Positions 4,312 to 41,716 of a DNA stretch of 64,000 nt are shown here, piece after piece. Source of the DNA: an uncultured Gemmatimonadales bacterium (GTDB lineage Bacteria > Gemmatimonadota > Gemmatimonadetes > Longimicrobiales > RSA9); contig OY970192.1 of assembly GCA_963708135.1 (NCBI GenBank), forward strand, positions 1,312,001-1,376,000, written 5' to 3'. The translations under genes and the position numbers were made by a program. Numbering within the stretch: position 1 is the stretch's first letter; each line of letters opens with the position of its first letter. The notes beneath the pieces were generated by a model. That model did no database searches and was not told the DNA's origin. It saw nothing but the letters and a program-made list of their open reading frames with translations.

Positions 4312-4321
4312 GGATACCGAC

Positions 4322-17202: not shown

Positions 17203-17579
17203 GGCGTCTTCGTCGTATCGCCCGACGCCGGGTGCACCAGCGTCGCTCCCGGGGCCAGCGCCCGCGCCTTTCGCATGGCCGAATCCGCCGCCACCGTGTC
17301 GCCCAGCGCCGACTCGGCCATGTAGACGCCGAACCAGCTCGCCGGTGTGTGCGGCGCATCCTTCACGGCCTGCTGGTAGTGCTTCAGCGCCGTCTGATAG
17401 TCCTTCGCGCGATAGGCCGTGTTGCCGCTATCCAGCTGCGCCTGGGCCGCTGGCGCCAGCTTCGGCGCGGTCGTCATCTGGCTCGCGCCCAACGGCTGCT
17501 TCGGCGCTTCATCCTTCTTGCACCCTACCAGCAGCGCGCCCGCTGCCAGAATCGGGACCACGCCCTTGAAGATCCGCAT
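17199..17579 (-). CDS. Small TPR lipoprotein
   Basis: LLVG-C lipobox; TPR-like GNTAYRAKDYQTALKHYQQA; RBS GAGGG. Confidence 0.8.
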   Translation of the reverse strand: MRIFKGVVPILAAGALLVGCKKDEAPKQPLGASQMTTAPKLAPAAQAQLDSGNTAYRAKDYQTALKHYQQAVKDAPHTPASWFGVYMAESALGDTVAADSAMRKARALAPGATLVHPASGDTTKTP

Positions 17580-17685
17580 CAATCCCTCTTGGTCGTCTGT
17601 CGTTCGTCTCGAGGCGCGCGACACCGGGACCCCCCGGCCCCGTCGAGCCCGTCTGCCGGGGCCCGGTCACGCGCCGCTCCCCCCG

Positions 17686-17700
17686 GCAGCATTCATGCCC
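17686..17700 (-). promoter_or_regulatory. Putative sigma54 -24/-12 promoter (leftward)
   Basis: GGGCATGAATGCTGC fits GG-N10-GC. Confidence 0.45.
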
Positions 17701-17957
17701 CATGCTGTCCCGTTCCGTCCCGCCCGCGCCGGCGCCGCCGAATCGGCCGCCGCGTCCTGATCTGCCAGCCCGCGGCGGGCACTTTCCGGGCTGCGCCATC
17801 CACTCCCTGGCGGCGCGCCGCCGGATCGCCCATTCTTTCCGGTCATGTCGCGCAAAGCCCCAACCAACGTTTACCTCCGCGGCAGAATGTCGCAAGGTTC
17901 CGTTCCGCCCGCGGCGAATCTTGGCGCCGGGCAAGGTCTTTCGCGCGCGAGGCGGAC

Positions 17958-17973
17958 TGGCCTGCCCGTTGCT
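17958..17973 (+). promoter_or_regulatory. Putative sigma54 -24/-12 promoter for the NapC-like/porin/MHC operon
   Basis: TGGCCTGCCCGTTGCT matches TGGC-N7-TTGC. Confidence 0.6.
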
Positions 17974-18086
17974 GAGCGGGGCCCCGCCGAACACAACGGA
18001 TCTTCACCCGATGACGGGTTGCAGCCAATGAGGATGAGAAGGAGCGTTGCGCGGGTCGGGCTGGGTGGTGGCGGGGCAGGGCCCTC

Positions 18087-26376: not shown

Positions 26377-27786
26377 ATGACGGAGCAATCCAGCGAGCGT
26401 CCGAAGGCCCGCGTACTCGTGGTCGAGGACGAGGAGATCGTGCGGGACCTGCTGGTGAAGGTCCTGGACGACGAAGGGTACGTCGTGGAGTCGGTCGATA
26501 GCGGTGAGAAGGCGCTGAAGGCGCTGGACGCCGAGCTCTACGATGTCGTGCTGCTGGACCTTAACCTGCCGGGCATGTACGGGATGAACGTGCTGGCGGC
26601 GGCGCCGTCGCTTCAGACGGACGCGGCGTTCATCGTGATGACGGCGTTCGGGTCGGTGGACACGGCCGTGGAGGCGATGAAGCTGGGCGCGTTCGATTAC
26701 ATCAACAAGCCGTTCCGCCCGGAGGAGCTGCTGCTGGTTGTGGAGCGGGCGCTGCGGGAGACGGAGCTGCGGCGGGAGGTGGCGCAGCTGCGCCGGCGGG
26801 CGGGCGAGGGGGCGCGGGGGAGCATCGTCGGGAAGTCGCCGGCGCTCGAGCGGATGTTCGATCTGATCGAGCGGGTGGCGCCGACGCGGGCCACGGTGCT
26901 GATCACGGGGGAGACGGGGACGGGCAAGGAGCTGGCGGCGCGGGCGCTACACGAGCTTTCGGGGCGCGTGCGGAAGCCGTTCGTGGCGATCAACTGCTCG
27001 GCGCTGCCGGAGACGCTGCTGGAGACGGAGCTGTTCGGGCACATGCGGGGCAGCTTCACGGGGGCGATCCAGAACAAGCGCGGCCTGTTCGAGGAGGCGA
27101 ACGGCGGCACGCTGTTCCTGGACGAGATCTCGACGGTCTCGCAGTCGATCCAGGTGAAGCTCCTGCGCGTGCTGCAGGACCGGAAGATCCAGCGGATCGG
27201 CGGGACCCAACAGCTTCCCGTGGACTTCCGGCTGGTGGCCGCCACGAACGTCGAGCTGGCGGAGCGGGTGGAGAACGGGGAGTTCCGAGAGGACCTGTTC
27301 TACCGGCTGAACGTGTTCCCGATTCGAGTTCCGGCGCTACGTGAGCGGAAGAGCGACATCCCCTTGCTGGCCAACTACTTCCGGACGAAGTTCGCGCAGG
27401 AGAACGGGGTCGAGGCGCCGGAGATCTCGCCCGAGACCATGCGGCGCCTGATCGAGTACGAGTGGCCGGGCAACGTGCGTGAGCTCGAGAACTTCATCGA
27501 GCGGGCGGTGATCATGCACGCCGGCGCTCGCTCGATCCCCTTCGACGCGCCGGCCGGGCAGAAGGAGAAGACGGAGCGCGACATGATCGCGCGGGCCCGC
27601 CAGGAGCGCTGGAACCTCGAGCAGCTGGAGCGCGAGTACATCCTCAATGTGCTGGACCAGACGCGGGGCCACAAGGGCAACGCCGCCGAGGTCCTGGGCA
27701 TCGACCGCCGGACGCTCTACCGGAAGCTGAAGAAATATCAGGACGATGGGCTGCTGCAGGAGCTCGAGCTCGCCGGCGTCGATTAG
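26377..27786 (+). CDS. Sigma54-dependent response regulator (NtrC/AtoC/ZraR family)
   Basis: REC domain; GETGTGKE; GSFTGA; WPGNVREL; HTH. Confidence 0.95.
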   Translation: MTEQSSERPKARVLVVEDEEIVRDLLVKVLDDEGYVVESVDSGEKALKALDAELYDVVLLDLNLPGMYGMNVLAAAPSLQTDAAFIVMTAFGSVDTAVEAMKLGAFDYINKPFRPEELLLVVERALRETELRREVAQLRRRAGEGARGSIVGKSPALERMFDLIERVAPTRATVLITGETGTGKELAARALHELSGRVRKPFVAINCSALPETLLETELFGHMRGSFTGAIQNKRGLFEEANGGTLFLDEISTVSQSIQVKLLRVLQDRKIQRIGGTQQLPVDFRLVAATNVELAERVENGEFREDLFYRLNVFPIRVPALRERKSDIPLLANYFRTKFAQENGVEAPEISPETMRRLIEYEWPGNVRELENFIERAVIMHAGARSIPFDAPAGQKEKTERDMIARARQERWNLEQLEREYILNVLDQTRGHKGNAAEVLGIDRRTLYRKLKKYQDDGLLQELELAGVD

Positions 27787-27811: not shown

Positions 27812-29404
27812 CTACGCGCGATCGACCGGCCTGGGCGTCGCCGGCCGTGCCGGCAGCCGCAGCGTGAACGTCGATCCGACGCCCGGCGTGGTGTCCACGG
27901 TCACATCCCCGCCCATGAGGCGGGCGAGCTGTCGGGAGAGCGGCAGGCCCAGGCCCGTGCCGCGGCCCTTCGCCGCGACCGACACCTGCTCGTACGGCCG
28001 GAAGATGCGCTCAATGTCCTCCGGCGCGATACCCGGACCGGTATCGCGCACCCACGCCAGCACCTCGCCCGCCTCGTTCCGCTCGACGCCCGCCGTGATC
28101 TCGCCGCCCGCCGGCGTGAACTTCGTCGCATTGGTCAGCAGGTTCACCATGATCTGACGGACCCGCATCGGGTCGGCCTCCACGACCACGCCGCGCTGCA
28201 GGGGCGAGGCGACCTGCATGCGGATGCCGGCGGATTCGGCATCCGGGCGCATCTGCAGCACGGCGTCGTGCACCACCTCCCCGACATCGACGGGCCAGGA
28301 GGTGAGCGTGAGGCGGCCCTCCTGGATGCGGGAGAGGCTGAGCAGATCCTCGATGAGCTTGCTTGCGCCCTCGGCGCCCTTCATGATCTTGCCGAGCCCG
28401 TCCCTCCACTCCTCGATGGTGTCCGGTTCGCGGCGGATCAGGTGGCGCGCCCAGACGGTGACCCCCGCCACCGCGTTTCCGAGCTCGTGGCTGACCGCGG
28501 CGAAGAAGCGGTCGCGCTCCTGGCGGAGCTGGGCGTTCTCGATGGCAACGGCCGCCTGGGCGGCGAGCATCTCGATGATGGCCAGGTCGTTTCCGCTGAA
28601 ATCCTCCGCCCCGACCTTCTCCGTCACGTAGAGATTGCCGAAGACGCGTCCTTTGCTGGTGACGGGCACGCCGAGGAACGACTGCATCTTGGGGTGGTGC
28701 GGGGGGACCCCGGAGGTGGCGGGGTGCTCGCTGAGGTCGTGCAGCCGGATCGGCTTGGGCTCACGGATCAGCAACCCGAGGATGCCGTGGCCGGCGGGCA
28801 GGTGGCCGATGCGCGCGCGTTGCTCGGGAGTGAGCCCGGCCGTGATGAAGTCGGAGAGTCCGGTGCCCTCTGCGTTGATCACGCCCATGGCGGCGTAGCG
28901 GGCATCCACCATTTCCCGGACCACGTCAACGAGCACCTGGAGCACACGATCGAGCGAGAGCGCCGAGGAGAGGGCGAGCCCGGCCTCGACGAGTCCCTCC
29001 GTGACGCGCTCCCCCTCAGCGTCCGCCGCCGCGGCGATGCGCACGTGCCGCTCGCGCAGCTGGACCAGGACGGACTCCCGAAGCGGCATGACGGTCACGT
29101 CGTAGTGGCCCTGATGCTGGTCCGTGCTGTAGCGCGTGGTGAAGGTGACGGTCTGCCCTTCATCCACCGCCTGGCGCACGCGTCGCTCGAAGGGGGTGTT
29201 CTCGAGCATCGGCAGCGCATCGTATACCGTCCCGCGGGGCACGAAGTCCACGCCCACGAGCCGGCGGGCGGCCACGTTGGCCCGCAGCACGCACCAGTCC
29301 CGGTCGAGGAGCACGACGGCGTCGGACAGCAGGTCGATCACCTGCCAGTCGGCGTCGGCGAGGCTGCTCGTCTTGCTCCGCTTCGCGCGCTTCTCGTTGG
29401 CCAT
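27812..29404 (-). CDS. Cytoplasmic PAS-GAF histidine kinase with DosS/DevS-like GAF
   Basis: IGHLPAGHGILGLLI...HPATSGVPPHHPKMQSFLGVP; SHELGN; N and G boxes; no TM helix. Confidence 0.9.
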   Translation of the reverse strand: MANEKRAKRSKTSSLADADWQVIDLLSDAVVLLDRDWCVLRANVAARRLVGVDFVPRGTVYDALPMLENTPFERRVRQAVDEGQTVTFTTRYSTDQHQGHYDVTVMPLRESVLVQLRERHVRIAAAADAEGERVTEGLVEAGLALSSALSLDRVLQVLVDVVREMVDARYAAMGVINAEGTGLSDFITAGLTPEQRARIGHLPAGHGILGLLIREPKPIRLHDLSEHPATSGVPPHHPKMQSFLGVPVTSKGRVFGNLYVTEKVGAEDFSGNDLAIIEMLAAQAAVAIENAQLRQERDRFFAAVSHELGNAVAGVTVWARHLIRREPDTIEEWRDGLGKIMKGAEGASKLIEDLLSLSRIQEGRLTLTSWPVDVGEVVHDAVLQMRPDAESAGIRMQVASPLQRGVVVEADPMRVRQIMVNLLTNATKFTPAGGEITAGVERNEAGEVLAWVRDTGPGIAPEDIERIFRPYEQVSVAAKGRGTGLGLPLSRQLARLMGGDVTVDTTPGVGSTFTLRLPARPATPRPVDRA

Positions 29405-29425: not shown

Positions 29426-31093
29426 TCAGAACAGGCCGTGGATGGTCCCGTCCGGGTCCAGCCTCATCGCCTCGGCCGCCGGGGTCCTCGGCAGCCCGGG
29501 CATCGTCATGATATCCCCCGTCTGCGCGACTACGAACCCCGCTCCCGCGGAGGGCGTGACCTCGCGCACCGTGATCCTGAAGCCCGTGGGCGCTCCCAGC
29601 AGCCTGGGATCATCGGCGAAGGAATACTGCGTCTTGGCCATACACACCGGCACGGCGCCGAGGCCGATGGACTCGAGCTTCGCGATCTGCTTCTCCGCCG
29701 CGCTCGTGTAGTCCACGCCGTCCGCGCGGTAGATCTCCGTGGCGACCCTCTCCATCTTCGCCTTGAGCGGCTGCTCCAGCTCGTAGAGCGGAGCATACGT
29801 CGCGCCGCCCCCCTCCAGGACGTCCAGCACCAGGTCGGCGAGCTCCAGCGCTCCGGCTCCGCCGTGGCCGTGCACGTCGGCCACCGCCACCGGCACCTCC
29901 ATCCCCCGGCACGCTTCCACGAGCGCGTCCAGCTCCTCCGCGCTGTCGCTCGCGAAGCGATTGATCCCGACCACCGGCGGCACCCCGAACTTGCGCACGT
30001 TCTCGACGTGGCGCGCCAGGTTGGCCGCGCCCCGCGAGACGGCCGCGGGGTCCGGCGTCGCCAGCCCCGTGCGCGCCACGCCGCCGTGCATCTTGAGCGC
30101 CCGGATCGTCGCGACTACCACCGCCGCGCCCGGCTCGAGGCCGCCGGCCCGCGCCTTGATGTCGAAGAACTTCTCCGCGCCGAGGTCCGCTCCGAAGCCG
30201 GCCTCCGTCACCACGAGATCCGCGAGGGCCAGCCCCGCCCGCGTGGCGATGAGCGAGTTGCACCCGTGCGCGATGTTGCCGAACGGACCGCCGTGGATGA
30301 AGGCCGGCGTGCCCTCCAGCGTCTGGACCAGGTTCGGCGCGATCGCGTCTCCCAGCAGCAGCGTCATCGCGCCCGACGCGCCCAGGTCTGCCGAGCGCAC
30401 GGGCGCTCCCGCCCGGTCGTAGCCCACGATGATGCGGCCCAGCCGTGCCTCCAGGTCCTCCGCATCGCGCGCCAGCGCGAAGATCGCCATGATCTCCGAA
30501 GCCGCCGTGATCATGAACCCGTCCTGCCGCGGCACGCCGCCCGTGGGACCGCCGAGCCCGATCACGATCTGACGCAGCGCGCGGTCGTTCATGTCCACCG
30601 CGCGCTTCCAGGTGATCCGCCGCGCATCGATCCCGAGCGCGTTGCCCTGGTGCAGGTGGTTGTCCAGCATCGCCGAGAGCAGCGCGTGCGCCGACGTGAT
30701 CGCGTGGAAGTCTCCCGTGAAGTGGAGGTTGATGGCCTCCATCGGCACCACCTGCGCGTAGCCGCCCCCCGACGCGCCCCCCTTCACCCCGAACACCGGG
30801 CCCAGGCTCGGCTGCCGCAGGCACAGCACCACGCGCCGCGAGCGCCGGCGCAGCCCGTCCGCCAGCCCCACCGCCATGGTGGATTTCCCCTCGCCCGCCG
30901 GCGTCGGGTTGATCCCCGTCACCAGCACCAGGCGTCCGCCCGCGCCGCGCCGCCGCTCGATCGCCTCCAGATGCACCTTGGCCTTGTAGCGGCCGTACAG
31001 GTCGATGTCCGTCTCCGGCAGGTCCAGCTCCGCCGCTACCTCCACGATCGGCTTCAGCTCGGCGGCCTGGGCAATCTCGATATCCGTGCGCAT
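29426..31093 (-). CDS. fhs: Formate-tetrahydrofolate ligase
   Basis: TPAGEGKS, GVKGGASGGGY, INLHFTGD, HGGPFGNIAHG, CMAKTQYS, MTMPGL. Confidence 0.97.
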   Translation of the reverse strand: MRTDIEIAQAAELKPIVEVAAELDLPETDIDLYGRYKAKVHLEAIERRRGAGGRLVLVTGINPTPAGEGKSTMAVGLADGLRRRSRRVVLCLRQPSLGPVFGVKGGASGGGYAQVVPMEAINLHFTGDFHAITSAHALLSAMLDNHLHQGNALGIDARRITWKRAVDMNDRALRQIVIGLGGPTGGVPRQDGFMITAASEIMAIFALARDAEDLEARLGRIIVGYDRAGAPVRSADLGASGAMTLLLGDAIAPNLVQTLEGTPAFIHGGPFGNIAHGCNSLIATRAGLALADLVVTEAGFGADLGAEKFFDIKARAGGLEPGAAVVVATIRALKMHGGVARTGLATPDPAAVSRGAANLARHVENVRKFGVPPVVGINRFASDSAEELDALVEACRGMEVPVAVADVHGHGGAGALELADLVLDVLEGGGATYAPLYELEQPLKAKMERVATEIYRADGVDYTSAAEKQIAKLESIGLGAVPVCMAKTQYSFADDPRLLGAPTGFRITVREVTPSAGAGFVVAQTGDIMTMPGLPRTPAAEAMRLDPDGTIHGLF

Positions 31094-31304
31094 CGGGCTC
31101 CGGCACCTCGTTCGGTTGCTGTTTGCTGGTATCCGGCTTCGATCCAGCCGTTCAGTCAGTATACGCGCAAGCCCGACGGCCGGCCACACCTCGCCGCCAC
31201 CATCGCGCCCCGCGTCGGCGTAACCTCCGGGGCGGTGCGCGACTGCGATGGGGCGAAACAGGACAGGACGTTTCGGAAAGTCGCGTTTTTGGGCCATAGC
31301 CAGA

Positions 31305-31319
31305 GGGCACGCTTTCTGC
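31305..31319 (+). promoter_or_regulatory. Putative sigma54 promoter of the hypCDE operon
   Basis: GGGCACGCTTTCTGC (GGCACG-N4-CTGC), about 57 nt upstream of hypC. Confidence 0.6.
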
Positions 31320-31376
31320 CCCCTCGGACCGCCGATCCTTGCGATCGACAGGAACCCAAATCGGCGAGGAACGCAC

Positions 31377-31685
31377 ATGTGCCTGGGAGTGCCGGGACGC
31401 GTGGTCGAGGTGCACGGGCAGACCGCGATCGTGGACTTCTTCGGGGTACGCCGCGAGACGCGGCTGGATGTGGTCGATGAGCCGGTCGCGCCCGGGGACT
31501 ACATCCTGAACCACGTCGGCTTTGCGATCCGCAAGATCCCGGCGGAGGAGATCCAGGAGACGCTGGCGCTCTACGAGCTGCTGCTCCGGGAGGCGGAAGG
31601 GGACGTGATGGCGGCCGACGTCCGCGGCGAGATGGAGGCGGGCGGCTGGGCGGCGGTCCCACCGCAGGCGGGGTCCGATGGCTAG
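31377..31685 (+). CDS. hypC: Hydrogenase maturation chaperone
   Basis: MCLGVPG start; GDYILNHVGFAI. Confidence 0.95.
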   Translation: MCLGVPGRVVEVHGQTAIVDFFGVRRETRLDVVDEPVAPGDYILNHVGFAIRKIPAEEIQETLALYELLLREAEGDVMAADVRGEMEAGGWAAVPPQAGSDG

Positions 31686-32826
31686 CGCCACGGAGCTGCG
31701 TGGCGGGGCGGGGGCGCAGCTCGATGAGCTGAAGTTCCGCGATCCCGCCAAGGCGCGGGAGCTTTCGGCCGCGCTCGCGCGGGTGTGCGAGACGATCGGC
31801 CGGGCGCCGATCTCGGTCATGCACGTATGCGGCAGCCACGAGCAGTCGATCGCGAAGTACGGTCTGCGCGCGGTGCTGCCGGAGGCGCTGGACGTGATCA
31901 TGGGCCCGGGCTGCCCCGTGTGCGTGACGGACCTCCCGGAGGTGGACGAGGCAGTAGTGCTCGCGGAACAGGGGGTGAGGATCGCGACGTACGGCGACAT
32001 GCTCCGGGTGCCGGGCACGGCGAAGTCGCTCCTGGAGGCCCAGGCGGAGGGGGCGCACATCGACGTCGTCTACGGCGCGGCGCAGGCGGTGGAGCTGGCG
32101 CGCGGGACGAGCGAGGAGGTGGTCTTCTTCGCGACTGGCTTCGAGACGACGGCGGTCGCGACCGCGGCGCTCGTGCTCTCGGACCCTCCGCCGAACTTCT
32201 CGGTGCTCTCGGCGCACAAGTACATCCCGCCGGCGATGGAGATCGTGGCGGAAATGCCCGAGAGCCGGGTGGAGGGGTTTCTGGCCGCGGGGCACGCGGC
32301 CGCGATCACGGGCTGGGGGATCTTCGAGCGGTTCGTGGAGCGCCACGGCATTCCCGTGGTGGTGGCCGGCTTCGAGCCGCTGGACATCCTGGCCGGGCTT
32401 GTCCAGCTGGTGGAGCTCATCCGCGACGGCAGGGCGGAGGTCCGCAACGCCTTCCCGCGCTGCGTGACGAAGCAGGGCAACGTCAACGCGCAGCGGCAGC
32501 TCTGGCAGGTGTTCCGTTCGACGGGCGGACAGTGGCGCGGCATCGCGCACGTGCCGAACGGCAACCTTCGCCTGAGGGATGCCTACGCGCAGCTGGACGC
32601 GCGTCGCCGCTTCGACATCGACCTGCGCCGGTTCTGGAGCATGGCGCCGCCGGCGCTCACGCAGACGTGCATCTGCGGGGACATCATGGCAGGGACCCGC
32701 TCTCCGTCGGACTGCCCGCTGTTCGGCAAGGAGTGCGTGCCGGACGCGCCCGTGGGCGCCTGCATGGTGAGCAGCGAAGGCACGTGCCGCATCTGGCACC
32801 AGTACGGGGGGCATCCGAAGCTATGA
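31678..32826 (+). CDS. hypD: Hydrogenase maturation Fe-S scaffold
   Basis: CGSHE, GPGCPVC, GFETT, GFEPLD and C-terminal Cys cluster CMVSSEGTC. Confidence 0.96.
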   Translation: MASATELRGGAGAQLDELKFRDPAKARELSAALARVCETIGRAPISVMHVCGSHEQSIAKYGLRAVLPEALDVIMGPGCPVCVTDLPEVDEAVVLAEQGVRIATYGDMLRVPGTAKSLLEAQAEGAHIDVVYGAAQAVELARGTSEEVVFFATGFETTAVATAALVLSDPPPNFSVLSAHKYIPPAMEIVAEMPESRVEGFLAAGHAAAITGWGIFERFVERHGIPVVVAGFEPLDILAGLVQLVELIRDGRAEVRNAFPRCVTKQGNVNAQRQLWQVFRSTGGQWRGIAHVPNGNLRLRDAYAQLDARRRFDIDLRRFWSMAPPALTQTCICGDIMAGTRSPSDCPLFGKECVPDAPVGACMVSSEGTCRIWHQYGGHPKL

Positions 32827-33878
32827 GCGCGACCGACGCCTGTGTGGTGACGCTGGGCCGCGAGGAGCGCGTGCTGATGAAGCATGGCGCCGGCGGGCGG
32901 GCAATGCGGCGGCTGATCGAGAGCACGCTGACGCCGCAGTTCATCGGGCAGCCTGTGGACGGAGTGGGTCTCGCCGCGTTCGACGACGGCGCCGCCCTGC
33001 GGATCGGCGACCAGTGGCTGGTGGTCACCACGGATTCGCACGTGGTGCAGCCGATCTTCTTCCCGGGCGGCGACATCGGGCGCCTCTCGGTCTCCGGCAC
33101 TGTGAACGATCTCGCGATGATGGGGGCGGTCGAGCCGCTCGGCATCACGTGCGCGCTGATCGTCGAGGAGGGCTTCCCGATGGCGGACCTCGAGCGGATC
33201 CACCGCTCCATGGCGGCGGCGTGCGAGGAAGCCGGCGCCGCGATCGTCACCGGCGACACGAAGGTGATGGGGAGGGGCGAGCTGGACGGGGTCGTCCTGA
33301 ACACCACCGGCGTGGCGCTGACGCGGCGCTACATCCCCGACGCCGGCCTGCGGCCGGGGGATCGGATCCTCGTGACGGGCACGATCGGGGACCATGGCAT
33401 CGCGCTGATGGCTGCGCGCAAGGGGTTCGGTCTCGATGCCGACCTCGTTTCCGACGTCGCCCCGATCAACGGGCTGATCCGGGCCGCCCTCGAGGCCGCC
33501 GGCGATGCCGTCACGGCCATGAAGGATCCCACGCGGGGCGGCGTGGCCAGCGCGCTCCACGAGATGGCGCAGAAATCCGGAGTCGGCATCGTGGTGGACG
33601 AGGCGGCGGTGCCCGTGAGCGGCGTCGTGGCGGCGGCCGCCGAGATGCTGGGGCTCGACCCGCTCCAGATCGCGAACGAGGGCAAGGCGGTGCTGGGCGT
33701 TCGCGCCGACGCGGCCGAGCGCGTGCTGACGGCGCTGCGCGCCCATCCCCTCGGCGCCAACGCGGCGATTATCGGCTCGTGCACGACGGAGCACGCCGGT
33801 CAGCTGGTGCTGGACACCGGGTTCGGCCGCCGGCTCCTCTCGGAGCCCGAGGGCGAGCCGCTCCCTCGCATCTGCTGA
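32823..33878 (+). CDS. hypE: Carbamoyl dehydratase
   Basis: HGAGG, TVNDLAM, GDTKV, DPTRGG, ANEG; C-terminal PRIC. Confidence 0.96.
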   Translation: MSATDACVVTLGREERVLMKHGAGGRAMRRLIESTLTPQFIGQPVDGVGLAAFDDGAALRIGDQWLVVTTDSHVVQPIFFPGGDIGRLSVSGTVNDLAMMGAVEPLGITCALIVEEGFPMADLERIHRSMAAACEEAGAAIVTGDTKVMGRGELDGVVLNTTGVALTRRYIPDAGLRPGDRILVTGTIGDHGIALMAARKGFGLDADLVSDVAPINGLIRAALEAAGDAVTAMKDPTRGGVASALHEMAQKSGVGIVVDEAAVPVSGVVAAAAEMLGLDPLQIANEGKAVLGVRADAAERVLTALRAHPLGANAAIIGSCTTEHAGQLVLDTGFGRRLLSEPEGEPLPRIC

Positions 33879-33888
33879 GGACCGCACC

Positions 33889-34656
33889 ATGATCGCGGAC
33901 GGCCGGCGGCGACTGCGCGTGGCGGTGCTCTTCTCGCACCGCGCCCCCGGCCTCGACTACGTGCTCGAGGCGGACCCCGGACGCGGGCCGCTGTACGAGC
34001 TGGTCGCGTGTGTGACGAGCGAGCCGGCGAACGCGGAGCACGGTCGCCTCGCGGAGCAGGGCGTGCCGCTCCTCGCCCACGACATCCACGCCTTCCACCA
34101 GGCGCGCGGCGCGCCTCTCTCCGACCCGGACGTCCGGCGCGCGTACGACGCGGCGATGGCGACGCTCCTCGAGCCGTTCGCGCCCGACCTCGTCGTCCTG
34201 TGTGCGTACCTCTACCTCGTTGGTGAGCCGCTGCTGGGCGCCTTCGAGGGGCGGATCGTGAACATCCACGATGCCGACCTCCGCTTGCGCGATGCCGACG
34301 GCAGGCCTCGGTATCCGGGGCTCCACGCCGTGCGCGATGCCATCCTCGCCGGGGAGAAGGACACGCGGAGCACGGTGCACATGGTGACGGCCGACCTCGA
34401 CGCGGGACCGGTCGTCACGGTGTCGCGCGCGTTCCCGGTGCATCAGCGCTTGGTCCGTGAGGCGTGCGCCACCGGCGCCACGGACGCACTGAAGGCCTAC
34501 GCGTACGCGCACCGCGAGTGGATGATGCGCCTCAGCTGGGGGCCGCTGCTCTCCAGGGTGCTCGAGAAGGCCGCAATGAGCCGCAATCACCGCCTGTTAC
34601 GCGAGCGCCCCCAGGTCGCGCCGCGTGCCCTCCCGCCAGCTCCGGCGGAGCCGTGA
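33889..34656 (+). CDS. N10-formyl-THF-dependent formyltransferase (PurN fold); putative HypX N-module equivalent
   Basis: PDLVVL, IVNIHDADL, YPGLHA, TVHMV...DAGP; directly after hypE. Confidence 0.85.
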   Translation: MIADGRRRLRVAVLFSHRAPGLDYVLEADPGRGPLYELVACVTSEPANAEHGRLAEQGVPLLAHDIHAFHQARGAPLSDPDVRRAYDAAMATLLEPFAPDLVVLCAYLYLVGEPLLGAFEGRIVNIHDADLRLRDADGRPRYPGLHAVRDAILAGEKDTRSTVHMVTADLDAGPVVTVSRAFPVHQRLVREACATGATDALKAYAYAHREWMMRLSWGPLLSRVLEKAAMSRNHRLLRERPQVAPRALPPAPAEP

Positions 34657-34679
34657 GCCGAGCGCGCGAGGGGGCGTCC

Positions 34680-35510
34680 ATGCCGAACATCCGCGTCGAG
34701 CACGACGGCGCCGTCGGCATCCTCACCATCGCCCGCCGGGAGCGCTTCAACTCCCTCGACGTCAGGACCGCGCAGGACTTCCGGCGCGCCGGCATCCAGC
34801 TCGCGCGGGATTCGGCGGTCCGGTGCGTGGTGCTGCGGGGCGAGGGCGGCGTGTTCTGCAGCGGTGCGGACCTGAAGTACATACGGGAGCGCGGCGAGGC
34901 CTCCGACTTCTCCTACCTCCAGCCGGAAGGTGGTGCGCCGGCAAAGGGTTACGGCGAGAGCTTCAAGCAGATTCTCGAGTACATCCACAGCACGATCTCC
35001 GAGATCGAGCGGGCCCCGAAACCCTTTATCGCGGCGGTGGATGGCATCGCCGCGGCCGGGGGGTTCGGCATCGCCATGGCGTGCGATCTCGTCTTTGCCT
35101 CCCGGAGCGCGGCCTTCGAGTGGGCCTACCATAAGACGGGCCTCACGGGCGCGGAGAGCTCGACCTTCTTCCTTCCGCGTCTGGTCGGTCTGCGGCAGGC
35201 GCTCGAGCTGGTCCTCCTCAATCCGCGGCTCGACGCGGAGGAAGCATTGCGCCGCGGCCTGATCACGGGCGTGCTCGAGGACGACGGCTTCCACGAGGCG
35301 GTGCTCGCGGTGGCGCGCCGGCTCGCCGAGGGGCCGACGGAGGCGTACGGCATCGCGAAGTCGCTGATCCACCGGGCGGCGGGCGTGGAGCAGCTCGACT
35401 ATCACCTGGACGAGGAGCTGCGGAGTCTGGCGCGGATCGCGGAGGGGCGTGACTTCGCCGAAGGGCTGGAGGCGTTCTTCGGGAAGCGGAAGCCGGACTT
35501 CGGCGGCTAG
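34680..35510 (+). CDS. Enoyl-CoA hydratase/isomerase-fold protein; putative HypX C-module equivalent
   Basis: FCSGADL, KPFIAAVDGIAAAGG, ACD; unusual AYHKTGLTGAES segment. Confidence 0.85.
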   Translation: MPNIRVEHDGAVGILTIARRERFNSLDVRTAQDFRRAGIQLARDSAVRCVVLRGEGGVFCSGADLKYIRERGEASDFSYLQPEGGAPAKGYGESFKQILEYIHSTISEIERAPKPFIAAVDGIAAAGGFGIAMACDLVFASRSAAFEWAYHKTGLTGAESSTFFLPRLVGLRQALELVLLNPRLDAEEALRRGLITGVLEDDGFHEAVLAVARRLAEGPTEAYGIAKSLIHRAAGVEQLDYHLDEELRSLARIAEGRDFAEGLEAFFGKRKPDFGG

Positions 35511-35514
35511 CGGC

Positions 35515-37839
35515 TCACTGCCGCGCCTTCGCATACGCCACCACGGCCTGGCCGAGTGCCAGGCCGCCGTCGTTTGGCGGGACGAGCCGGTGCGTGTAGA
35601 CCTCGAAGCCGGCCGCGCCGAGTCGCTCGCTCAGCCGGTCCGTCAGGAGCGCGCTCTGGAAGCAGCCGCCGCTCAGGCACACCCGCTCGATTCCGGTCGC
35701 ATGCCCCACGAGCGTGCAGAGGCGGGCGGTCGCGGCGGCGACCGTGTTGTGGAACGCGCCGGCGATCGCGGACACCGGCACCCCGGCGCGGTGGTCCTGC
35801 CACAAGGCCCGCAGCGTCGGCGCCGGATCCAGGACGTGCACACCGCCATCGGCGGTCAGGATGTCGAAGGGGTAGACGACATCGCATGCCGCATCCGCCA
35901 CAGCCTCGAGCCGGACCGCCGGCTCTCCCTCGTACGCGGCCCGGGTGCAGACGCCCAGCAGCGCGGAGACGGCGTCGAAGAGGCGCCCGCAGGACGAGGT
36001 CATCGGCGAGTTCAGGCGCAGCTCCAGCTGCCGCCGCAGCACCTGCCGCTCGAGGCCCGCGAAGCGCTCGAAGAACGGCTCCAGCCGCTCCTCCGCCTCC
36101 GGCAGCATCTCCCACAGATACGCGGCGGCCATGCGGTCGGGGCGCCGGATCGCGGCCTCGCCGCCGAGCATCGGCACGGTCCGCAGGTGCGCCGCGCGCC
36201 TGAAGTCGGACCAGTCGGCCACGAGCACCTCGCCGCCCCACACCGTGCCGTCGGTGCCGTAGCCCGTCCCGTCGTACGCCACGCCGATGACGGGACCGAC
36301 CAGCCCGTTCTCCGCCATGCACGCCGCGATGTGCGCGTGGTGGTGCTGAACGGCGACGCGCAGCTCGCCGTCGGACGCGAGGCGCGCCGCGAGCAGGGTT
36401 GACATGTAGTCGGGGTGCATGTCGTGCGCGATGATACGCGGGTGGACGCGGAAGAGGTCGCGGTAGAGCTCGAGCGAGCCCGTGAAGTGCTCCAGGGTCT
36501 CGAGGTTCTCGAGGTCGCCGATGTGCTGGCTGAGAAACGCCTTGGACCCCTTCACGAGGCAGAAGGCGCTCTTCTGCTGGCCTCCGCACGCCAGGATGTC
36601 CGCGGCCGCGGAGAAGGGAAGGTCCACGGGCGCGGGCGCGAGCCCCCGCGAGCGCCGGATCGGCGTCGGCGTCTCGCCGAGCACGCGCACGACGGAGTCG
36701 TCGTAGCGCGCGCGGATGTCGCGGTCGTGGAGCAGGAAGGCGTCCGCCACGTCGGAGAGGCGGTCGAGCGCCTCCGCGTTCCCGATGGCGATCGGCTCCT
36801 CGCTCAGATTGCCGCTCGTCATGACCAGCGGCCCGTCGAAGGCCGCGACCAGCAGATGGTGGAGCGGCGTGTAGGGCAGCATGAGCCCGACCGTATCGAG
36901 GCCGGGCGCGACGGCCGGGGCAAGGCCCGAATCGGCACGGGCACGGACGAGCACGATCGGGCGCTCCCGCGAGCAGAGCACCGCCGCCTCGACGCCGGTG
37001 AGCTCCGCCACCCGTTCCGCCTGCAGCCGGTCGGCGACCATGACGGCCAGCGGCTTGCCGTAGCGGTGCTTCCGCTCCCGCAGCCGGGAGACCGCCGCCT
37101 CGTCCCGGGCATCGCAGGCGAGGTGGAAGCCGCCGAGCCCCTTCAGCGCGACGACGGCGCCCTCGCGCAGCAGCGCGGCGGCACCCGCGATCGGATCGCC
37201 CTCCGGTGCGGGCCGTCCCGGCGCGTGGAGCCAGACCTTCGGCCCGCACGTCGGGCAGGCGACCGGCTGCGCGTGGAAGCGTCGGTCGCGCGGGTCCTCG
37301 TATTCGCGCCGGCACGCCTCGCACAGCGCGAACTCTCGCATGGTCGTGCGCGCCCGGTCGTAGGGCATGCTCTCGATGATCGTGAAGCGAGGCCCGCAGT
37401 GCGTGCAGTTGATGAAGGGATAGAGGTAGCGGCGGTCGGCGGGGTCGAAGAGCTCGCGCAGGCAGTCGTCGCACGTCGCCACGTCGGGCGAGATGTTCTG
37501 CCAGCCGAAGTCCTGCCTGCTGGTGCGGATCTCGAAGGTTTCGAACCCCTCCGGCTCGTGCGGCTCGGCCACCACGGTCTCGATGCGGGCGAGCGGCGGG
37601 GGATCGCGGCGGAGATCCTGGAGGAACGTCTCGAGCGAGGGCGCGGCCCCCTCCACGTGGATCTCGACGAGCTCGGCCGTGTTGCGGACCCAGCCGCTCA
37701 GGGCGTGCTCCTCCGCGAGGCGGAAGACGAACGGGCGGAAGCCGACCCCCTGTACGGTGCCCGTGATCCGGACGCGCAGCCCCGAGAGCGGAGCCGATCC
37801 ACGACGGGTGCCGCCCTCGGCGGCGCGCGTTCGGTGCAC
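35515..37839 (-). CDS. hypF: Carbamoyltransferase
   Basis: GTVQGVGFRP acylphosphatase domain; Zn fingers; QHHHAH; DGTGYG; NDGG; start uncertain. Confidence 0.96.
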   Translation of the reverse strand: MHRTRAAEGGTRRGSAPLSGLRVRITGTVQGVGFRPFVFRLAEEHALSGWVRNTAELVEIHVEGAAPSLETFLQDLRRDPPPLARIETVVAEPHEPEGFETFEIRTSRQDFGWQNISPDVATCDDCLRELFDPADRRYLYPFINCTHCGPRFTIIESMPYDRARTTMREFALCEACRREYEDPRDRRFHAQPVACPTCGPKVWLHAPGRPAPEGDPIAGAAALLREGAVVALKGLGGFHLACDARDEAAVSRLRERKHRYGKPLAVMVADRLQAERVAELTGVEAAVLCSRERPIVLVRARADSGLAPAVAPGLDTVGLMLPYTPLHHLLVAAFDGPLVMTSGNLSEEPIAIGNAEALDRLSDVADAFLLHDRDIRARYDDSVVRVLGETPTPIRRSRGLAPAPVDLPFSAAADILACGGQQKSAFCLVKGSKAFLSQHIGDLENLETLEHFTGSLELYRDLFRVHPRIIAHDMHPDYMSTLLAARLASDGELRVAVQHHHAHIAACMAENGLVGPVIGVAYDGTGYGTDGTVWGGEVLVADWSDFRRAAHLRTVPMLGGEAAIRRPDRMAAAYLWEMLPEAEERLEPFFERFAGLERQVLRRQLELRLNSPMTSSCGRLFDAVSALLGVCTRAAYEGEPAVRLEAVADAACDVVYPFDILTADGGVHVLDPAPTLRALWQDHRAGVPVSAIAGAFHNTVAAATARLCTLVGHATGIERVCLSGGCFQSALLTDRLSERLGAAGFEVYTHRLVPPNDGGLALGQAVVAYAKARQ

Positions 37840-37844
37840 GGCCC

Positions 37845-38522
37845 TCAGCCCGTCACGACGCGCGTTCTGACCTGCGTACGCAGGAAATCGTACCATTCCT
37901 CCAGCCCCGCGCCGGTGAGCGCGGAGGTGAAGAAGAAGCGCAGGTCCGGGTTGATCTCGCGCGCGAACGCCACGGCCTTGTCCATATCGTAGGGCAGGTA
38001 CGGTAGCAGATCGATCTTGTTGATGATGGCGTAGCGCGCCCGGCGAAACATCGACGGGTACTTGAGCGGCTTGTCCTCGCCCTCCGTGACGGACAGGACG
38101 ACGACCTTCGAGTCCTCCCCCAGATCCCAGCTCGCGGGGCAGACCAGGTTGCCGACGTTCTCGATGAAGAGCAGTCCGGTCTCATCGAGGTCGATGGCCT
38201 CGAGAGCCGTGGCCACCTGGCGCGCGTCGAGATGGCACGCTCCGCCGGTCACGACCGCCTGAACCAGGCGCTCCGTGTGCCGGGCCAGCCGGTCCGCGTC
38301 GTTCTGCGTCTGCACGTCCCCCGTCACCACCGCCGCGCGAAGCTCCGTGCCGACATCGGCCAGCGTCCGCTCCAGCAGCGCGGTTTTCCCGGACCCCGGC
38401 GAGGAAACCAGGTTGAAGGTGGTGACGCCGGCATCGGCAAGGCGACGGCGCACGTCCCGCGCGATCTCGTCGTTCTTCGCCAGGACCCGCTCCCTCACCT
38501 CAATCGTCCGGACCGCCATCAT
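37845..38522 (-). CDS. hypB: Nickel-insertion GTPase
   Basis: SSPGSGKT, ACHLDA, ENVGNLVCP, EGEDKPLKYP, NKID; no His-rich N-terminus. Confidence 0.96.
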   Translation of the reverse strand: MMAVRTIEVRERVLAKNDEIARDVRRRLADAGVTTFNLVSSPGSGKTALLERTLADVGTELRAAVVTGDVQTQNDADRLARHTERLVQAVVTGGACHLDARQVATALEAIDLDETGLLFIENVGNLVCPASWDLGEDSKVVVLSVTEGEDKPLKYPSMFRRARYAIINKIDLLPYLPYDMDKAVAFAREINPDLRFFFTSALTGAGLEEWYDFLRTQVRTRVVTG

Positions 38523-38760
38523 CCACCTCCAGGTAGCTCACGCGCAGCACGTCACCCGGCAGCCGCAGCAGCACCGGGCGTGCCGCCACAAAGGGCGGCT
38601 GCGTCAGCAGCGCGTCGAGACAGAACTCCAGGTTCTCGGCCTCGAGGCCCGCGTCATCACCGACCTCGACCCCGACTTCCACCACCGACGGGAGCGTCGC
38701 GAGGCCGACCTGCTCCTCCACGATGCGGCAGACCTCCATCGCGACGCTCATCTCATGCAT
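38500..38760 (-). CDS. hypA: Nickel chaperone HypA, truncated form lacking the Zn-binding CxxC pairs
   Basis: MHEMS start; EVG..AGLEAENLEFC; G-x-x-LRVSYLEV C-terminal strand. Confidence 0.85.
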   Translation of the reverse strand: MHEMSVAMEVCRIVEEQVGLATLPSVVEVGVEVGDDAGLEAENLEFCLDALLTQPPFVAARPVLLRLPGDVLRVSYLEVDDGGPDD

Positions 38761-39265
38761 ACGCCCGCTCCCGGAGGCGCCGCAACGCATGGCCCTCCCC
38801 GCGCAGCCGCTCGGCCACGGCCTCGACCAGCGCCGGCAGGCCGCGCTCCAGAACCGGGCTCAGCTCGACCTGCATCTCCAGGACTGCGGGCTGCAGGCCC
38901 ATGGCCGCGGTGCGGGCAGGGAGGGTGCCGCGCCACTCCGCCAGCGCCAGCACCTCGCGCAGGTCGATCTGGTGCGGCGAGAGCTTGTGGCCGAAGTAGC
39001 GTGGGATCTCCTCGCGCTCGAGCACGATCTGCGTGCCCGGCGCGGTCCGCAGGTCGATCGCGTCGAGGAAGAGCAGGCTCTCCGCCTCCTCGATCATCGG
39101 CAGCAGGTTCATCCCCCAGGTCCCGCCATCGAGCACCTCGACCGTGGACGGCAGCTCCCAGTCCTGAACGAGACGGGCCAGGGCGGCAAGCCCCAGCCCG
39201 TCGTCGCCCATGAGCGGGTTGCCCAGGCCGATCACCGTGATCCGGCCCGGGCTTGCCTCAGTCAT
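38753..39265 (-). CDS. hyaD: Hydrogenase maturation endopeptidase (HyaD/HupD/HybD)
   Basis: GLGNPLMGDDGLG, LDGGT, DAID, SPHQ. Confidence 0.93.
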   Translation of the reverse strand: MTEASPGRITVIGLGNPLMGDDGLGLAALARLVQDWELPSTVEVLDGGTWGMNLLPMIEEAESLLFLDAIDLRTAPGTQIVLEREEIPRYFGHKLSPHQIDLREVLALAEWRGTLPARTAAMGLQPAVLEMQVELSPVLERGLPALVEAVAERLRGEGHALRRLRERAYA

Positions 39266-40004
39266 CCGTGTACTCCCGGTCCTCCGGTACGAACCGGCCA
39301 CCGCTGATGATCGAGGAGATCGTGCCCGTGCGTTCCACGACCTCCGCCCGCAGCGCCAGGTAGACGTGGATCGGAATGAAGATCAGGAAGACCCACGTCA
39401 GCACGTGGTGCACGAACCGCACGACCTGCATCCCGCCGAACAGCGGGCCCACCCAGTTGAACAGGTGGAAGAACAGCCCGTTCGGGTTCGACTGGCCGTA
39501 CATGGCGAACCCCGTCACCACCATGATCGCCGCCAGCAGATAGATGCCCGTATACGAGAGCTGCTGCAGCGGGTTGTGCCCGAGGTAGTGCGGCTCATCG
39601 TGATCGATCAGCAGGTAGTAGCGCGCCATCTTGACGAGGTTCTTCCAGTCCCGCCCGCGCACCGGGAAGAGCGCTCTCCAGCGCTCGAACTTGTTCCCCG
39701 CGAACAGCCAATAGAACCGCAGGATGGCTGTGGCCACGAGCACGCCCGCCGCGCTGAAGTGGACCAGCCGCACCCAGCCCATCATGAAGTGCTCGCTCGC
39801 GGCACCGCTCGGGAAGAAGTACGGCCTCCCGATGTAGAAGCCGGTCACCGCGAGCGTCAGGATGCAGCCGACGGCGATCCAGTGCATCGCGCGGATCGGC
39901 CACTGCCACAGGTAGACCCAGCGATACTCCCCGCTCGGCGGAGGGACCGGGTGCGCGATTCCTCGCGCACCCGGCTCGGCGATCGTCTGCTCGAGCTTCG
40001 TCAT
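39258..40004 (-). CDS. hyaC: Ni/Fe-hydrogenase cytochrome b subunit
   Basis: PIRAMHW, RLVHF, GHNPLQ, FVHH, IHVY. Confidence 0.93.
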   Translation of the reverse strand: MTKLEQTIAEPGARGIAHPVPPPSGEYRWVYLWQWPIRAMHWIAVGCILTLAVTGFYIGRPYFFPSGAASEHFMMGWVRLVHFSAAGVLVATAILRFYWLFAGNKFERWRALFPVRGRDWKNLVKMARYYLLIDHDEPHYLGHNPLQQLSYTGIYLLAAIMVVTGFAMYGQSNPNGLFFHLFNWVGPLFGGMQVVRFVHHVLTWVFLIFIPIHVYLALRAEVVERTGTISSIISGGRFVPEDREYTDD

Positions 40005-41716
40005 AGCACCTTCACCTCCGTGACGACGGCGCCCTGTGCGTCGAGCACGTGCACTCCGCAGGCGATGCACGGGTCGAAGGAGTGGACCGTGCGCAGGATC
40101 TCCAGCGGCTGGTCCGGCTTGACGAGCGGGTGGTTGTCCATGAGCGACAGCTCGTACGGCCCCGCCTGCCCCTTCGGATCCCGCGGCGACGCGTTCCACG
40201 TCGTCGGCACGACGCATTGGTAGCGCGAGATCTTGCCGTCCTTGATCTGCACCCAGTGCCCGAGCGCGCCGCGCGGCGCGTCCAGGTAACCGTAGCCCTG
40301 CGCCGTGGCCGGCCATGAGCTCGGATCCCACTTCGACGCGTCGAACGTCTTGGTGTCCCCGCTCTTGATCCGGTCCACCAGCTCGCCGTACCACTTGTTC
40401 ATGCGCCGCGCGAGCACGACGGTCTCGATGGCACGTGCGGCCGTTCGTCCTAGCGTCGAGAAGAGCGCCTCCGGCCCCACCTGCAGCTTGGTGAGTGCGG
40501 CATTCGTGAGTTCCTTCACCTCGGGATGCCCGACCGCATAGGCGACCAGCATGCGCGCCAGCGGACCAACCTCCATCACCTGCCCGTCGTAGCGCGGCGC
40601 CTTCATCCACGTGTACTTCTTCTCGTCCTGCAGGTAGGTCCACGGTGTGGGCGGGCCCGTGTACTTCGGCGTCGTCTCGCCCTCGTAGGGGTGCAGCCCG
40701 ACGTCTTCGCCGCCGCTGTACTCGTACCACGCGCTCGTGACGTACTCCTTCACCTTGTTCTGGTCGTACTCCACGATCTTGGAGAGGTCGCGGTTCAGGA
40801 TGATGCCCCGCGGCAGGTAGAGCGACTTCGGATCGTTGATGCTGCCCTCGGGGAACTCGCCGACCGACAGGTAGTTCTTGGCACCCCCGCCGATCGATGC
40901 CCACTCCTTGTAGAAGCCGGCGATGGCAACCAGGTCCGGCCAGTAGACCTCCTCGACGAAGCGCTGCGCCTTCTGGATCATGCCCTGTACGTCTGTCAGC
41001 CGTGCCGCGTTGATCGTCGCCGTGTCGTTCAGGTTGATGGCCGAGGCCATCCCGCCCACCAGGAAATTCGGGTGCGGGTTCTTGCCGCCGAAGATGGTAT
41101 GCAGCCGGATTACGTCCTTCTGCCAGTCCAGGGCCTCCAGGTAGTGCGCCGTGGCGAGGAGGTTCACCTCGGGCGGCAGCTTGTAGGCCGGATGACCCCA
41201 GTAGCCGTTGGCGAAGATCCCGAGCTGCCCGCTCGCGACGAACGTCTTCAGCCTGTTCTGCACCTCCGCGAAATAGGTCGCGGAGTTGTTCGGCCACGGC
41301 GAGATCGACTTGGCGATCGCCGACGTCTTGACCGGGTCCGCGGACAGCGCGCTCACCACGTCCACCCAGTCCAGCGCATGCAGGTGGTAGAAGTGGATCA
41401 CATGGTCCTGAATGAACTGCATACCGTGTACGAGGTTGCGGATCAGGTTGGCGTTCGGCGGGATCTCGATGCCGAGCGCATCCTCCACGGCCCGGCACGA
41501 CGCCACCGCGTGCACGACCGTGCACACGCCGCAGATGCGCTGCGTGAACGCCCACGCATCCCGCGGGTCGCGGTCCTGCAGGATCGTCTCGATCCCGCGG
41601 AACTGCGTGGACGACGCCCAGGCGTTCGCGATCTTCCCGTTCTCGGCCTGGGCCTCGATCCGGAGGTGCCCCTCGATGCGGGTGATCGGATCGACGACGA
41701 CCTTAGTTCTCGCCAT
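40001..41716 (-). CDS. hyaB: Group 1 [NiFe]-hydrogenase large subunit
   Basis: DPITRIEGH, RICGVC, SFDPCIACGVH plus cleavable C-terminal tail. Confidence 0.97.
   Translation of the reverse strand: MARTKVVVDPITRIEGHLRIEAQAENGKIANAWASSTQFRGIETILQDRDPRDAWAFTQRICGVCTVVHAVASCRAVEDALGIEIPPNANLIRNLVHGMQFIQDHVIHFYHLHALDWVDVVSALSADPVKTSAIAKSISPWPNNSATYFAEVQNRLKTFVASGQLGIFANGYWGHPAYKLPPEVNLLATAHYLEALDWQKDVIRLHTIFGGKNPHPNFLVGGMASAINLNDTATINAARLTDVQGMIQKAQRFVEEVYWPDLVAIAGFYKEWASIGGGAKNYLSVGEFPEGSINDPKSLYLPRGIILNRDLSKIVEYDQNKVKEYVTSAWYEYSGGEDVGLHPYEGETTPKYTGPPTPWTYLQDEKKYTWMKAPRYDGQVMEVGPLARMLVAYAVGHPEVKELTNAALTKLQVGPEALFSTLGRTAARAIETVVLARRMNKWYGELVDRIKSGDTKTFDASKWDPSSWPATAQGYGYLDAPRGALGHWVQIKDGKISRYQCVVPTTWNASPRDPKGQAGPYELSLMDNHPLVKPDQPLEILRTVHSFDPCIACGVHVLDAQGAVVTEVKVL

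Follow-up and report, generated by a model that had tools for sequence, protein, structure and literature searches.

A hyp-linked PurN-fold formyltransferase and a crotonase as a candidate two-protein source of the [NiFe]-hydrogenase CO ligand in Gemmatimonadota

From where does a [NiFe]-hydrogenase receive its carbon monoxide (CO) ligand in a bacterium in which no HypX is detected? HypX or HoxX, known from Cupriavidus necator pHG1 and Rhizobium leguminosarum and represented by the Aquifex aeolicus structures 6J0P and 6J1F, produces CO from N10-formyl-tetrahydrofolate (formyl-THF) via formyl-coenzyme A (formyl-CoA). In the available sections of a 2025 review (PMC12134894), the fused HypX is the only CO-forming enzyme named, and the HypX-independent CO source is called unresolved. 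The question is raised by a 64,000-nucleotide (64-kb) stretch of DNA from an uncultured Gemmatimonadales bacterium (assembly GCA_963708135.1, contig OY970192.1, positions 1,312,001 to 1,376,000; hereafter the window, in whose numbering positions are given), with a G+C content of approximately 71%. Here, a hyp operon carries two additional genes, encoding a hyp-linked PurN-fold formyltransferase (hereafter FT) and a hyp-linked crotonase (hereafter ECH). To judge from sequence comparison, FT and ECH probably supply the CO ligand of the neighboring [NiFe]-hydrogenase by HypX chemistry, as two proteins of different descent, and we hold this interpretation with moderate confidence.

The operon starts with hypC (31377..31685, + strand; 102 amino acids [aa], start MCLGVPG; PF01455, 89.4 bits), followed on the same strand by hypD (31678..32826; 382 aa; PF01924, 422.6 bits), hypE (32823..33878; 351 aa, with the AIRS and AIRS_C domains and the C-terminus PRIC), FT (33889..34656; 255 aa; PF00551, 68.4 bits), and ECH (34680..35510; 276 aa; PF00378, 151.6 bits). 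The genes are packed tightly, with overlaps of 8 nt between hypC and hypD and 4 nt between hypD and hypE, and with spacings of 10 nt between hypE and FT and 23 nt between FT and ECH. Among sequencing runs, the only one listed as containing 31300..35600 is a soil-metagenome DNA run, and no RNA run is listed for it. A GAGG-type ribosome-binding site precedes FT as well as ECH, and hypC-hypD-hypE-FT-ECH is a single operon. FT and ECH are located between hypE and hypF within a full hupSLC-protease-hypABF cluster of a membrane-bound [NiFe]-hydrogenase. A sequence-only reading of this DNA had described the layout of these genes with the divergent fhs; Pfam searches of the window recovered every gene that it named at its place, exact to the base, and the two active-site motifs discussed below were likewise exactly as read.

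In the mechanism that we propose, FT, a protein of PurN fold that keeps the Asn-His-Asp triad and has lost the PurN acceptor loop, would transfer the formyl group of formyl-THF to coenzyme A (CoA). ECH, in which Tyr150 and Glu159 replace the usual catalytic acid, would then convert formyl-CoA to CO and CoA, and the CO would be delivered to the iron on HypC-HypD. Both reactions, their substrates, and the delivery of CO are what we infer for this system. As the FT add-on is missing in many relatives, we expect ECH to accept free formyl-CoA of other origin, and in carriers without FT it would draw formyl-CoA from another source.

The sequence-only reading had set a gene-neighborhood survey as a test beforehand. 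Relatives of FT showed 50–69% identity, and 40 of them were used to build a family profile (A1). The search of species-representative genomes with A1 gave 124 relatives, from which 80 FT-anchored loci were kept, and the neighbors at these loci were called by tblastn with the window's own proteins. Of the 75 loci that offer at least 1 kb of room, 73 have an ECH gene that starts no more than 400 bp downstream of FT. The immediate upstream neighbor of FT is hypE at 72 of the 80 loci and hypD at 5; at one locus it is hypC, and at two there is none. The five loci with hypD upstream are ordered hypD-FT-ECH-hypE. Structural hydrogenase genes, hypF, and hypB are also present in most FT-anchored loci. 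The hosts belong to Gemmatimonadota and Acidobacteriota (Vicinamibacteria and Thermoanaerobaculia), together with one Nitrospiria and one Actinomycetes metagenome-assembled genome, and a genome of the same family as the window's (G012, contig of L060) possesses the same five genes, with an FT identity of 50%. FT and ECH are conserved together in hyp operons, in an arrangement far beyond chance.

Analysis of the ECH sequence located the segment Y150-H-K-T-G-L-T-G-A-E159 at 35127..35156 (+). Y150 and E159 are invariant in all 72 ECH orthologues, where they lie within the invariant block F-E-W-A-Y-x-K-T-G-L-[TS]-G-A-E-S-S-T-F. ECH aligns with the C-terminal domain of C. necator HypX (residues 337–552) at 28% identity over 228 aa (BLASTP, E 5e-10), and both BLASTP and MAFFT place Y150 in the column of HypX Y439 and E159 in that of E449, residues that correspond to Y416 and E426 of A. 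aeolicus HypX. According to the available part of PMC6802093, mutation of Y439/E449 leads to a HypX-minus phenotype, and both residues are candidate bases for decarbonylation. With C. necator HypX as the query, ECH is the best match to the C-domain in the genome (2.3e-7 versus 7.3e-5 for the next). The corresponding segment of HypX, compared in seven sequences from four phyla, is P-H-Y-[KRQ]-x-[ML]-G-(N)-L-[YS]-G-S-E; its Tyr and Glu stand in the same columns as in ECH, and four of the seven have the Y-x8-E spacing of ECH. None of eight aligned crotonase paralogues from the same genome has Tyr at the Y150 column or Glu at the E159 column. The orthologues also agree without exception in F-C-S-G-A-D-L and G-x-A-A-A-G-G, the CoA and oxyanion-hole motifs.

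As a control, we used the 118 representatives of 240–300 aa among the best 150 profile matches, of which 8 carry both Tyr and Glu and are family members, leaving 110 ordinary crotonases. Glu at the E159 column occurs in 0 of these 110, and in 104 of them the preceding column holds the Asp of a PaaG-type P-D-G motif; this Asp is absent from ECH (A158) and from HypX. In these alignments, the diagnostic HypX-like feature is therefore the replacement of P-D-G by G-[AS]-E, by which a Glu is gained and the PaaG-type Asp is lost. Two divergent crotonases, P0167 and P0196, with 42–45% identity to ECH, also keep the Tyr and Glu (F-E-[WY]-A-Y...A/T-E-G).

Comparison with canonical enoyl-CoA hydratases revealed that ECH shares their crotonase fold, the G-A-D-L and A-A-A-G-G motifs, and the second Glu position (E176, shared by at least 90% of the orthologues), whereas the column of the first catalytic Glu, which we take to be Glu144 of the rat enzyme, reads P-E in five of the eight aligned paralogues and A-Y in ECH. 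An analogy with methylmalonyl-CoA decarboxylase (Escherichia coli ScpB/YgfG) was considered and rejected: Tyr140 of ScpB, presumably its catalytic residue, aligns with G157 of ECH (BLASTP, 24% identity, E 9e-25), and the columns of Y150 and E159 are occupied in ScpB by Pro and Leu, respectively.

The predicted structure of ECH (mean predicted local distance difference test [pLDDT] score of 87) is a typical crotonase fold with a self-associating C-terminus, matching 3P5M at Z 34. The sequence-only reading had suggested superposing a predicted heterodimer on A. aeolicus HypX; the ECH model alone does superpose, with HypX residues 286–544 aligning to ECH 1–271 (VIA-align; Z 30.4–30.8, root mean square deviation of 2.1–2.4 Å), but it did not single HypX out, as the HypX chains stand at ranks 6–13 of 1,000, tied with other crotonases. 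The fold is thus non-discriminating.

Analysis of FT placed its active-site motif N-I-H-D-A-D-L (N125, H127, and D130) at 34261..34281 (+). In family alignment A1, the triad of PurN-type enzymes is retained, with N125 conserved in at least 90% of members and H127 and D171 invariant, and D130 is an additional invariant Asp at position His+3. The predicted structure (pLDDT 92) finds its best fold matches in PurN, 3AUF and 3P9X. Compared with PurN (glycinamide ribonucleotide [GAR] transformylase) and PurU (formyl-THF deformylase), FT has the same fold and triad, but differs in two segments. The S-G-x-G-[ST]-N-L loop, which we take to be the GAR phosphate site, is replaced by S-x-R-A-P-G-L (S-H-R-A-P-G-L in FT, standing at S-G-S-G-T-N-L of 3AUF, with R18, A19, P20, and G21 conserved in at least 90%), and N-I-H-P-S-L-L of PurN becomes N-I-H-D-A-D-L. 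The family is further marked by eight residues inserted behind the His motif and, at the C-terminus, by a long conserved helix, A-Y-A-x-x-E-W-M-M...W-G-P-L-L. FT is not the only PurN-like protein of the genome, as the sequence-only reading had allowed it might be: a canonical PurN is encoded beside purH, in addition to an Fmt, and FT aligns with this PurN at only 32% identity over 93 aa. Prediction of an FT-ECH complex gave a score of 0.00, obtained without controls, and weighs neither way.

Could FT and ECH be ordinary metabolic passengers in the operon, a spare PurN and a PaaG-like enoyl-CoA isomerase or hydratase? Their best database matches point that way. Those of FT are PurN proteins, and source annotations, where given, name its relatives PurN, the mislabeling that the sequence-only reading had foreseen; those of ECH are PaaG-like crotonases (1,2-epoxyphenylacetyl-CoA isomerase 4FZW_C, 2e-36), with which it shares the fold. 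Both proteins, however, fall below every curated family cut-off listed: FT scores 76.1 bits against 150.1 for TIGR00639 (PurN), and ECH, below all NCBIfam cut-offs listed, scores 172 bits against 300 for NF046063 ('oxepin-CoA hydrolase, alternative type') and 161.9 bits against 345.15 for the PaaG-type isomerase TIGR02280. The PurN acceptor loop and the catalytic Asp of PaaG are both replaced, the latter motif being G-A-E in ECH. ECH is strictly linked to hyp genes and not to paa genes, the hyp linkage holds across several phyla, and the distribution of ECH follows one class of HypD, as described below. We consider the passenger explanation highly improbable.

A census of 401 genomes of the window's phylum, each at least 80% complete, indicated how ECH and FT are distributed. 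HypD was found in 150 genomes (a count that includes G186, flagged as unpublished), an ECH orthologue in 22 (68–75% identity in the 21 besides the window's own genome, G000), and an FT-family member in 7. The HypD proteins form two sharply separated Pfam score classes, of approximately 500–525 and approximately 410–423 bits, and only the lower class accompanies ECH. The 22 ECH carriers are exactly the genomes with the lower HypD class, including that of the window's hypD, and ECH occurs in 0 of the other 128 HypD-positive genomes of the sample; in one genome (G302), hypD is broken by a frameshift. In all 22 ECH-positive genomes, ECH lies beside hypCDE. The 13 lower-class loci without FT are all ordered hypC-hypD-hypE-ECH, as are 2 further loci, and in the six FT-positive genomes other than the window's, ECH, FT, and hypD lie within 4 kb of one another by coordinates. 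In a sample of 166 Acidobacteriota genomes, all 7 that are ECH-positive also have FT, which is adjacent to ECH in 6, with G485 as the exception. ECH is the constant core of the system and FT is an optional add-on. The two-protein route of the sequence-only reading is thereby retained as an arrangement conserved in hyp operons, but not as an obligate one, since most ECH carriers of the phylum have no FT.

This distribution leads to a further and more tentative proposal, which we find conceivable but somewhat doubtful, namely that ECH alone may be a free-standing formyl-CoA decarbonylase and a minimal CO-ligand synthase, to which HypX and the FT-ECH pair represent two separate ways of adding a formyl-THF feeder. 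As ECH stands alone in most carriers, free formyl-CoA of general metabolism would, on this proposal, naturally serve as the source of the CO ligand.

With C. necator HypX as the query, the window's genome gave no fused HypX, and neither did the 401 genomes of the phylum, where no match spans both domains; the matches in 32 of these genomes (including G026, flagged as unpublished) are confined to the N-domain and Fmt-like, the best being 5e-18. Likewise, five other carriers of FT and ECH gave no fused HypX, only separate weak matches. The same query readily detects HypX on 51 plasmids from Proteobacteria, Actinomycetota, Cyanobacteriota, and Campylobacterota. On two of the plasmids, H27 (Mesorhizobium huakuii) and H36 (Sulfurovum mangrovi), canonical HypX is annotated as two features, a 'formyltransferase family protein' and a second gene, which may be true splits or frameshifted ordinary HypX.

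Comparison of the FT-ECH pair with HypX revealed likenesses in operon position, as hypX of C. necator pHG1 directly follows hypE, and in the pairing of a formyltransferase fold with a crotonase fold, in addition to the residues described above. HypX, however, is one polypeptide (PF00551, PF02911, and PF00378 in C. necator), whereas FT and ECH are encoded by two genes, and ECH often occurs without any formyltransferase. The N-domain of HypX is Fmt-like with Formyl_trans_C, whereas FT is PurN/PurU-like with PF00551 only; the scaffolds are thus unlike canonical HypX, as the sequence-only reading had held. FT retains the Asn of N-x-H, which is missing from the seven HypX sequences (V/I/F-H-P-G), and the His-Asp-Asp set of A. 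aeolicus HypX (H74, D80, and D109) has its second Asp at His+6, in contrast to D130 of FT at His+3, whereas H127 and D171 of FT stand in the PurN-type positions. The hosts also differ, being Gemmatimonadota, Acidobacteriota, and others, with a small subunit of standard type. Since FT is PurN-like and not Fmt-like, the pair would be an analogue of HypX and not a HypX cut in two.

A number of observations weigh against a HypX-like role of the pair, the first group of which concerns its distribution. FT is absent from 15 of the 22 ECH-carrying genomes of the phylum, and in all five FT-less carriers tested, each with all its candidates scored, no FT-family gene was found genome-wide (best score 54 bits versus 319–382 for members), the closest matches to the FT profile being ordinary PurN or Fmt. 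No recurrent or CoA-related gene emerged behind ECH at the 13 ECH-only loci, where 27 open reading frames picked from 84 candidates gave V-ATPase, Ccm, permease, and cytochrome genes. FT, in turn, stands beside a hypC paralogue without an adjacent ECH in two unrelated genomes (L032:9604-10774 and L128:8573-9552, the latter in G485). L032, ordered hypF-hypC-FT followed by a gene of no known type, is one of the two loci without ECH among the 75; in G485, ECH sits in a separate hypFCDE-ECH-hypB operon, and FT lies beside a second hypC on another contig. The other locus without ECH, L065, places FT once outside any hyp context: an FT-family gene of 43% identity (L065:4311-5174) lies on a Halodesulfurarchaeum-binned contig beside DUF169 and an MCP fragment, with no hyp genes in its 6.1 kb. 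In addition, no FT-ECH fusion was found in a search for longer proteins or among the best 150 representatives. In the course of these searches, an apparent HypE-FT fusion, P0122, proved to be a frameshift artefact, in which an out-of-frame, Arg/Ala-rich HypE tail runs into the FT start. All 35 remaining long matches are PurN-PurH proteins, and the 9 long motif-bearing representatives checked have no PF00551 and look like broken gene calls, one of which runs into hypA.

The second group concerns the proteins themselves. The Tyr column of the 110 ordinary crotonases holds Tyr in 87 and Phe in 22, so the Tyr is an inheritance of the neighboring crotonase clade. The HypX-like Tyr/Glu signature of the sequence-only reading therefore survives in its alignment with Y439/E449 and in its Glu, but the Tyr is not diagnostic, leaving a single Glu and the loss of an Asp as the main basis of the residue argument. 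Overall, ECH is much nearer to PaaG-like crotonases (2e-36) than to HypX (5e-10). A tree of ECH, HypX C-domains, and paralogues is a star with a HypX branch of 3.6 changes, from which a common Tyr/Glu ancestor is not recoverable, and HypX is not among the Foldseek matches from the Protein Data Bank listed, to rank 50, for the ECH model. The matches listed to the same rank for the FT model do not include HypX either. FT aligns with the N-domain of HypX over 41 aa only (E 0.011), and it has the His+3 Asp instead of HypX's Asp at His+6. Finally, the proximal-cluster motif of the small subunit in the window, read from the sequence, is the standard C-T-G-C. HypX is known from O2-tolerant hydrogenases, whose small subunit is of a six-cysteine type, unlike the one here.

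These observations bear directly on the main rival explanation, in which FT and ECH are hydrogenase-maturation accessories with other chemistry, and the pathway either has no free formyl-CoA intermediate or yields a product other than CO. ECH might act on another acyl-CoA or on a protein-bound thioester on HypC, HypD, or HypE, and FT might attach the formyl group to a protein thiol, such as one on a HypC paralogue, or just hydrolyze formyl-THF. The loci of L032 and G485, with FT next to a hypC paralogue and no ECH alongside, would suit such roles of FT, and its acceptor loop, though different from that of PurN, need not bind CoA. Against this stand the adjacency of FT and ECH in 73 of 75 loci and the presence of FT in every ECH-positive genome of the Acidobacteriota sample. 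For ECH, the fact that most of its carriers in the phylum have no FT-family gene fits other chemistry, and the position of its acidic residue, one removed from the PaaG-type Asp, makes a PaaG-like proton transfer on another substrate conceivable; the combination of Tyr with G-[AS]-E, however, is common to ECH and HypX and occurs in 0 of the 110 nearest crotonases. Moreover, HypX is the sole hyp-linked combination of a formyltransferase and a crotonase of known function in the available sections of PMC12134894. We judge chemistry other than that of HypX to be rather unlikely, and keep CO-ligand supply by FT and ECH as the preferred interpretation.

The sequence-only reading had further assigned the module its own formyl-THF supply, with fhs as a dedicated feeder and a route from formate to formyl-THF, formyl-CoA, and CO. 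The fhs gene (29426..31093, - strand; formate-tetrahydrofolate ligase, 555 aa from MRTDIEIAQ; PF01268, 833 bits; NCBIfam NF010030, 863 bits versus a cut-off of 652) is divergent from hypC, the intergenic region between the two genes measuring 283 bp, and its product is the proposed substrate of FT. However, it is the only copy in the 5.45-Mb genome and thus the housekeeping one, and no fhs was found within approximately 10 kb of the module in any of the 80 FT-anchored and 13 ECH-only loci, nor in the 20-kb locus examined in the same-family genome G012. A sole copy that is absent near the module in 93 other loci is not a dedicated supply gene, and this part of the earlier reading is abandoned; a feeder role of fhs appears improbable to us. 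The divergent arrangement is particular to the window's genome, fhs is probably a neighbor and not part of the module, and its place beside hypC is most simply taken as a lineage-specific trait or a coincidence.

Just beyond fhs lie a PAS-GAF histidine kinase (27812..29404, -) and a sigma-54 activator with a receiver domain (26377..27786, +). A sigma-54-like -24/-12 element, GGCAC-N5-CTGC (31306..31319, +), approximately 58 nt before the hypC start, is a putative promoter; the strict consensus TGGCAC-N5-TTGC has no match anywhere in the window. The element, activator, and kinase together resemble the HoxA-type control beside C. necator hypX.

On the other side of the operon, hypF (35515..37896, -; 793 aa, five HypF domains) is convergent on ECH and is followed, in order of coordinates and on the same strand, by hypB (37845..38522; PF02492), a short hypA (38500..38760; 86 aa; PF01155, profile positions 1–57 of 112 only), and genes for a hydrogenase maturation protease (38753..39301; PF01750), a hydrogenase b-type cytochrome subunit (39258..40004; PF01292, 116.9 bits), the [NiFe]-hydrogenase large subunit (40001..41716; PF00374, 791 bits; 50% identity to C. 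necator HoxG), and the small subunit (41703..42860; PF14720 and PF01058), which has the Tat motif SRRDFL and an uncertain start codon. The short HypA has no CxxC pairs, and its zinc-finger half is missing. Multihaem c-type cytochromes, cytochrome b, and ccmF are found around the hydrogenase cluster (716-5800, 16693-21385, and 23031-25010), and the module is likewise bordered by cytochrome and ccm genes of this sort in other genomes. An IS21-type element, with an rve transposase followed by an IstB ATPase, lies at 6365-8520 (+). Elsewhere in the genome, a second hypC-hypD-hypE set (G000:C1:3017269-3023339; L101:5234-11339) lies beside a distant [NiFe]-hydrogenase, the large subunit of which is 25% identical to that of the window, and there is a third large-subunit-like gene (G000:C1:3668242-3669402). 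No FT, ECH, or HypX was found near the second hypCDE set or the third large-subunit-like gene.

We found no description of the FT-ECH pair or of a stand-alone crotonase in the literature searched, which covers few subscription journals. New in the present analysis are the 22 : 7 : 0 census of ECH, FT, and fused HypX among the 401 genomes of one phylum, the link of ECH to one HypD class, the Tyr control, the removal of fhs from the module, and the explanation of the HypE-FT 'fusion' as a frameshift artefact. The findings allow the systematic mis-annotation of these genes as 'PurN' and 'enoyl-CoA hydratase' to be corrected, and they point to a small two-gene cassette that could aid heterologous hydrogenase production in air. 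They also reveal a compact and assayable candidate CO-ligand system that is widespread, within hyp operons, among soil phyla without detected HypX, composed of a 276-aa crotonase alone or together with a 255-aa formyltransferase. If the proposed role is true, formyl-CoA decarbonylation would be used well beyond HypX and would be able to run on free formyl-CoA, and a formyl-THF feeder would have been recruited at least twice, from the PurN-type lineage in FT and the Fmt-type lineage in HypX. If ECH alone suffices, it would be the first HypX-independent enzyme for CO-ligand synthesis and would lend direct support to the formyl-CoA proposal that is under discussion for HypX-less organisms.

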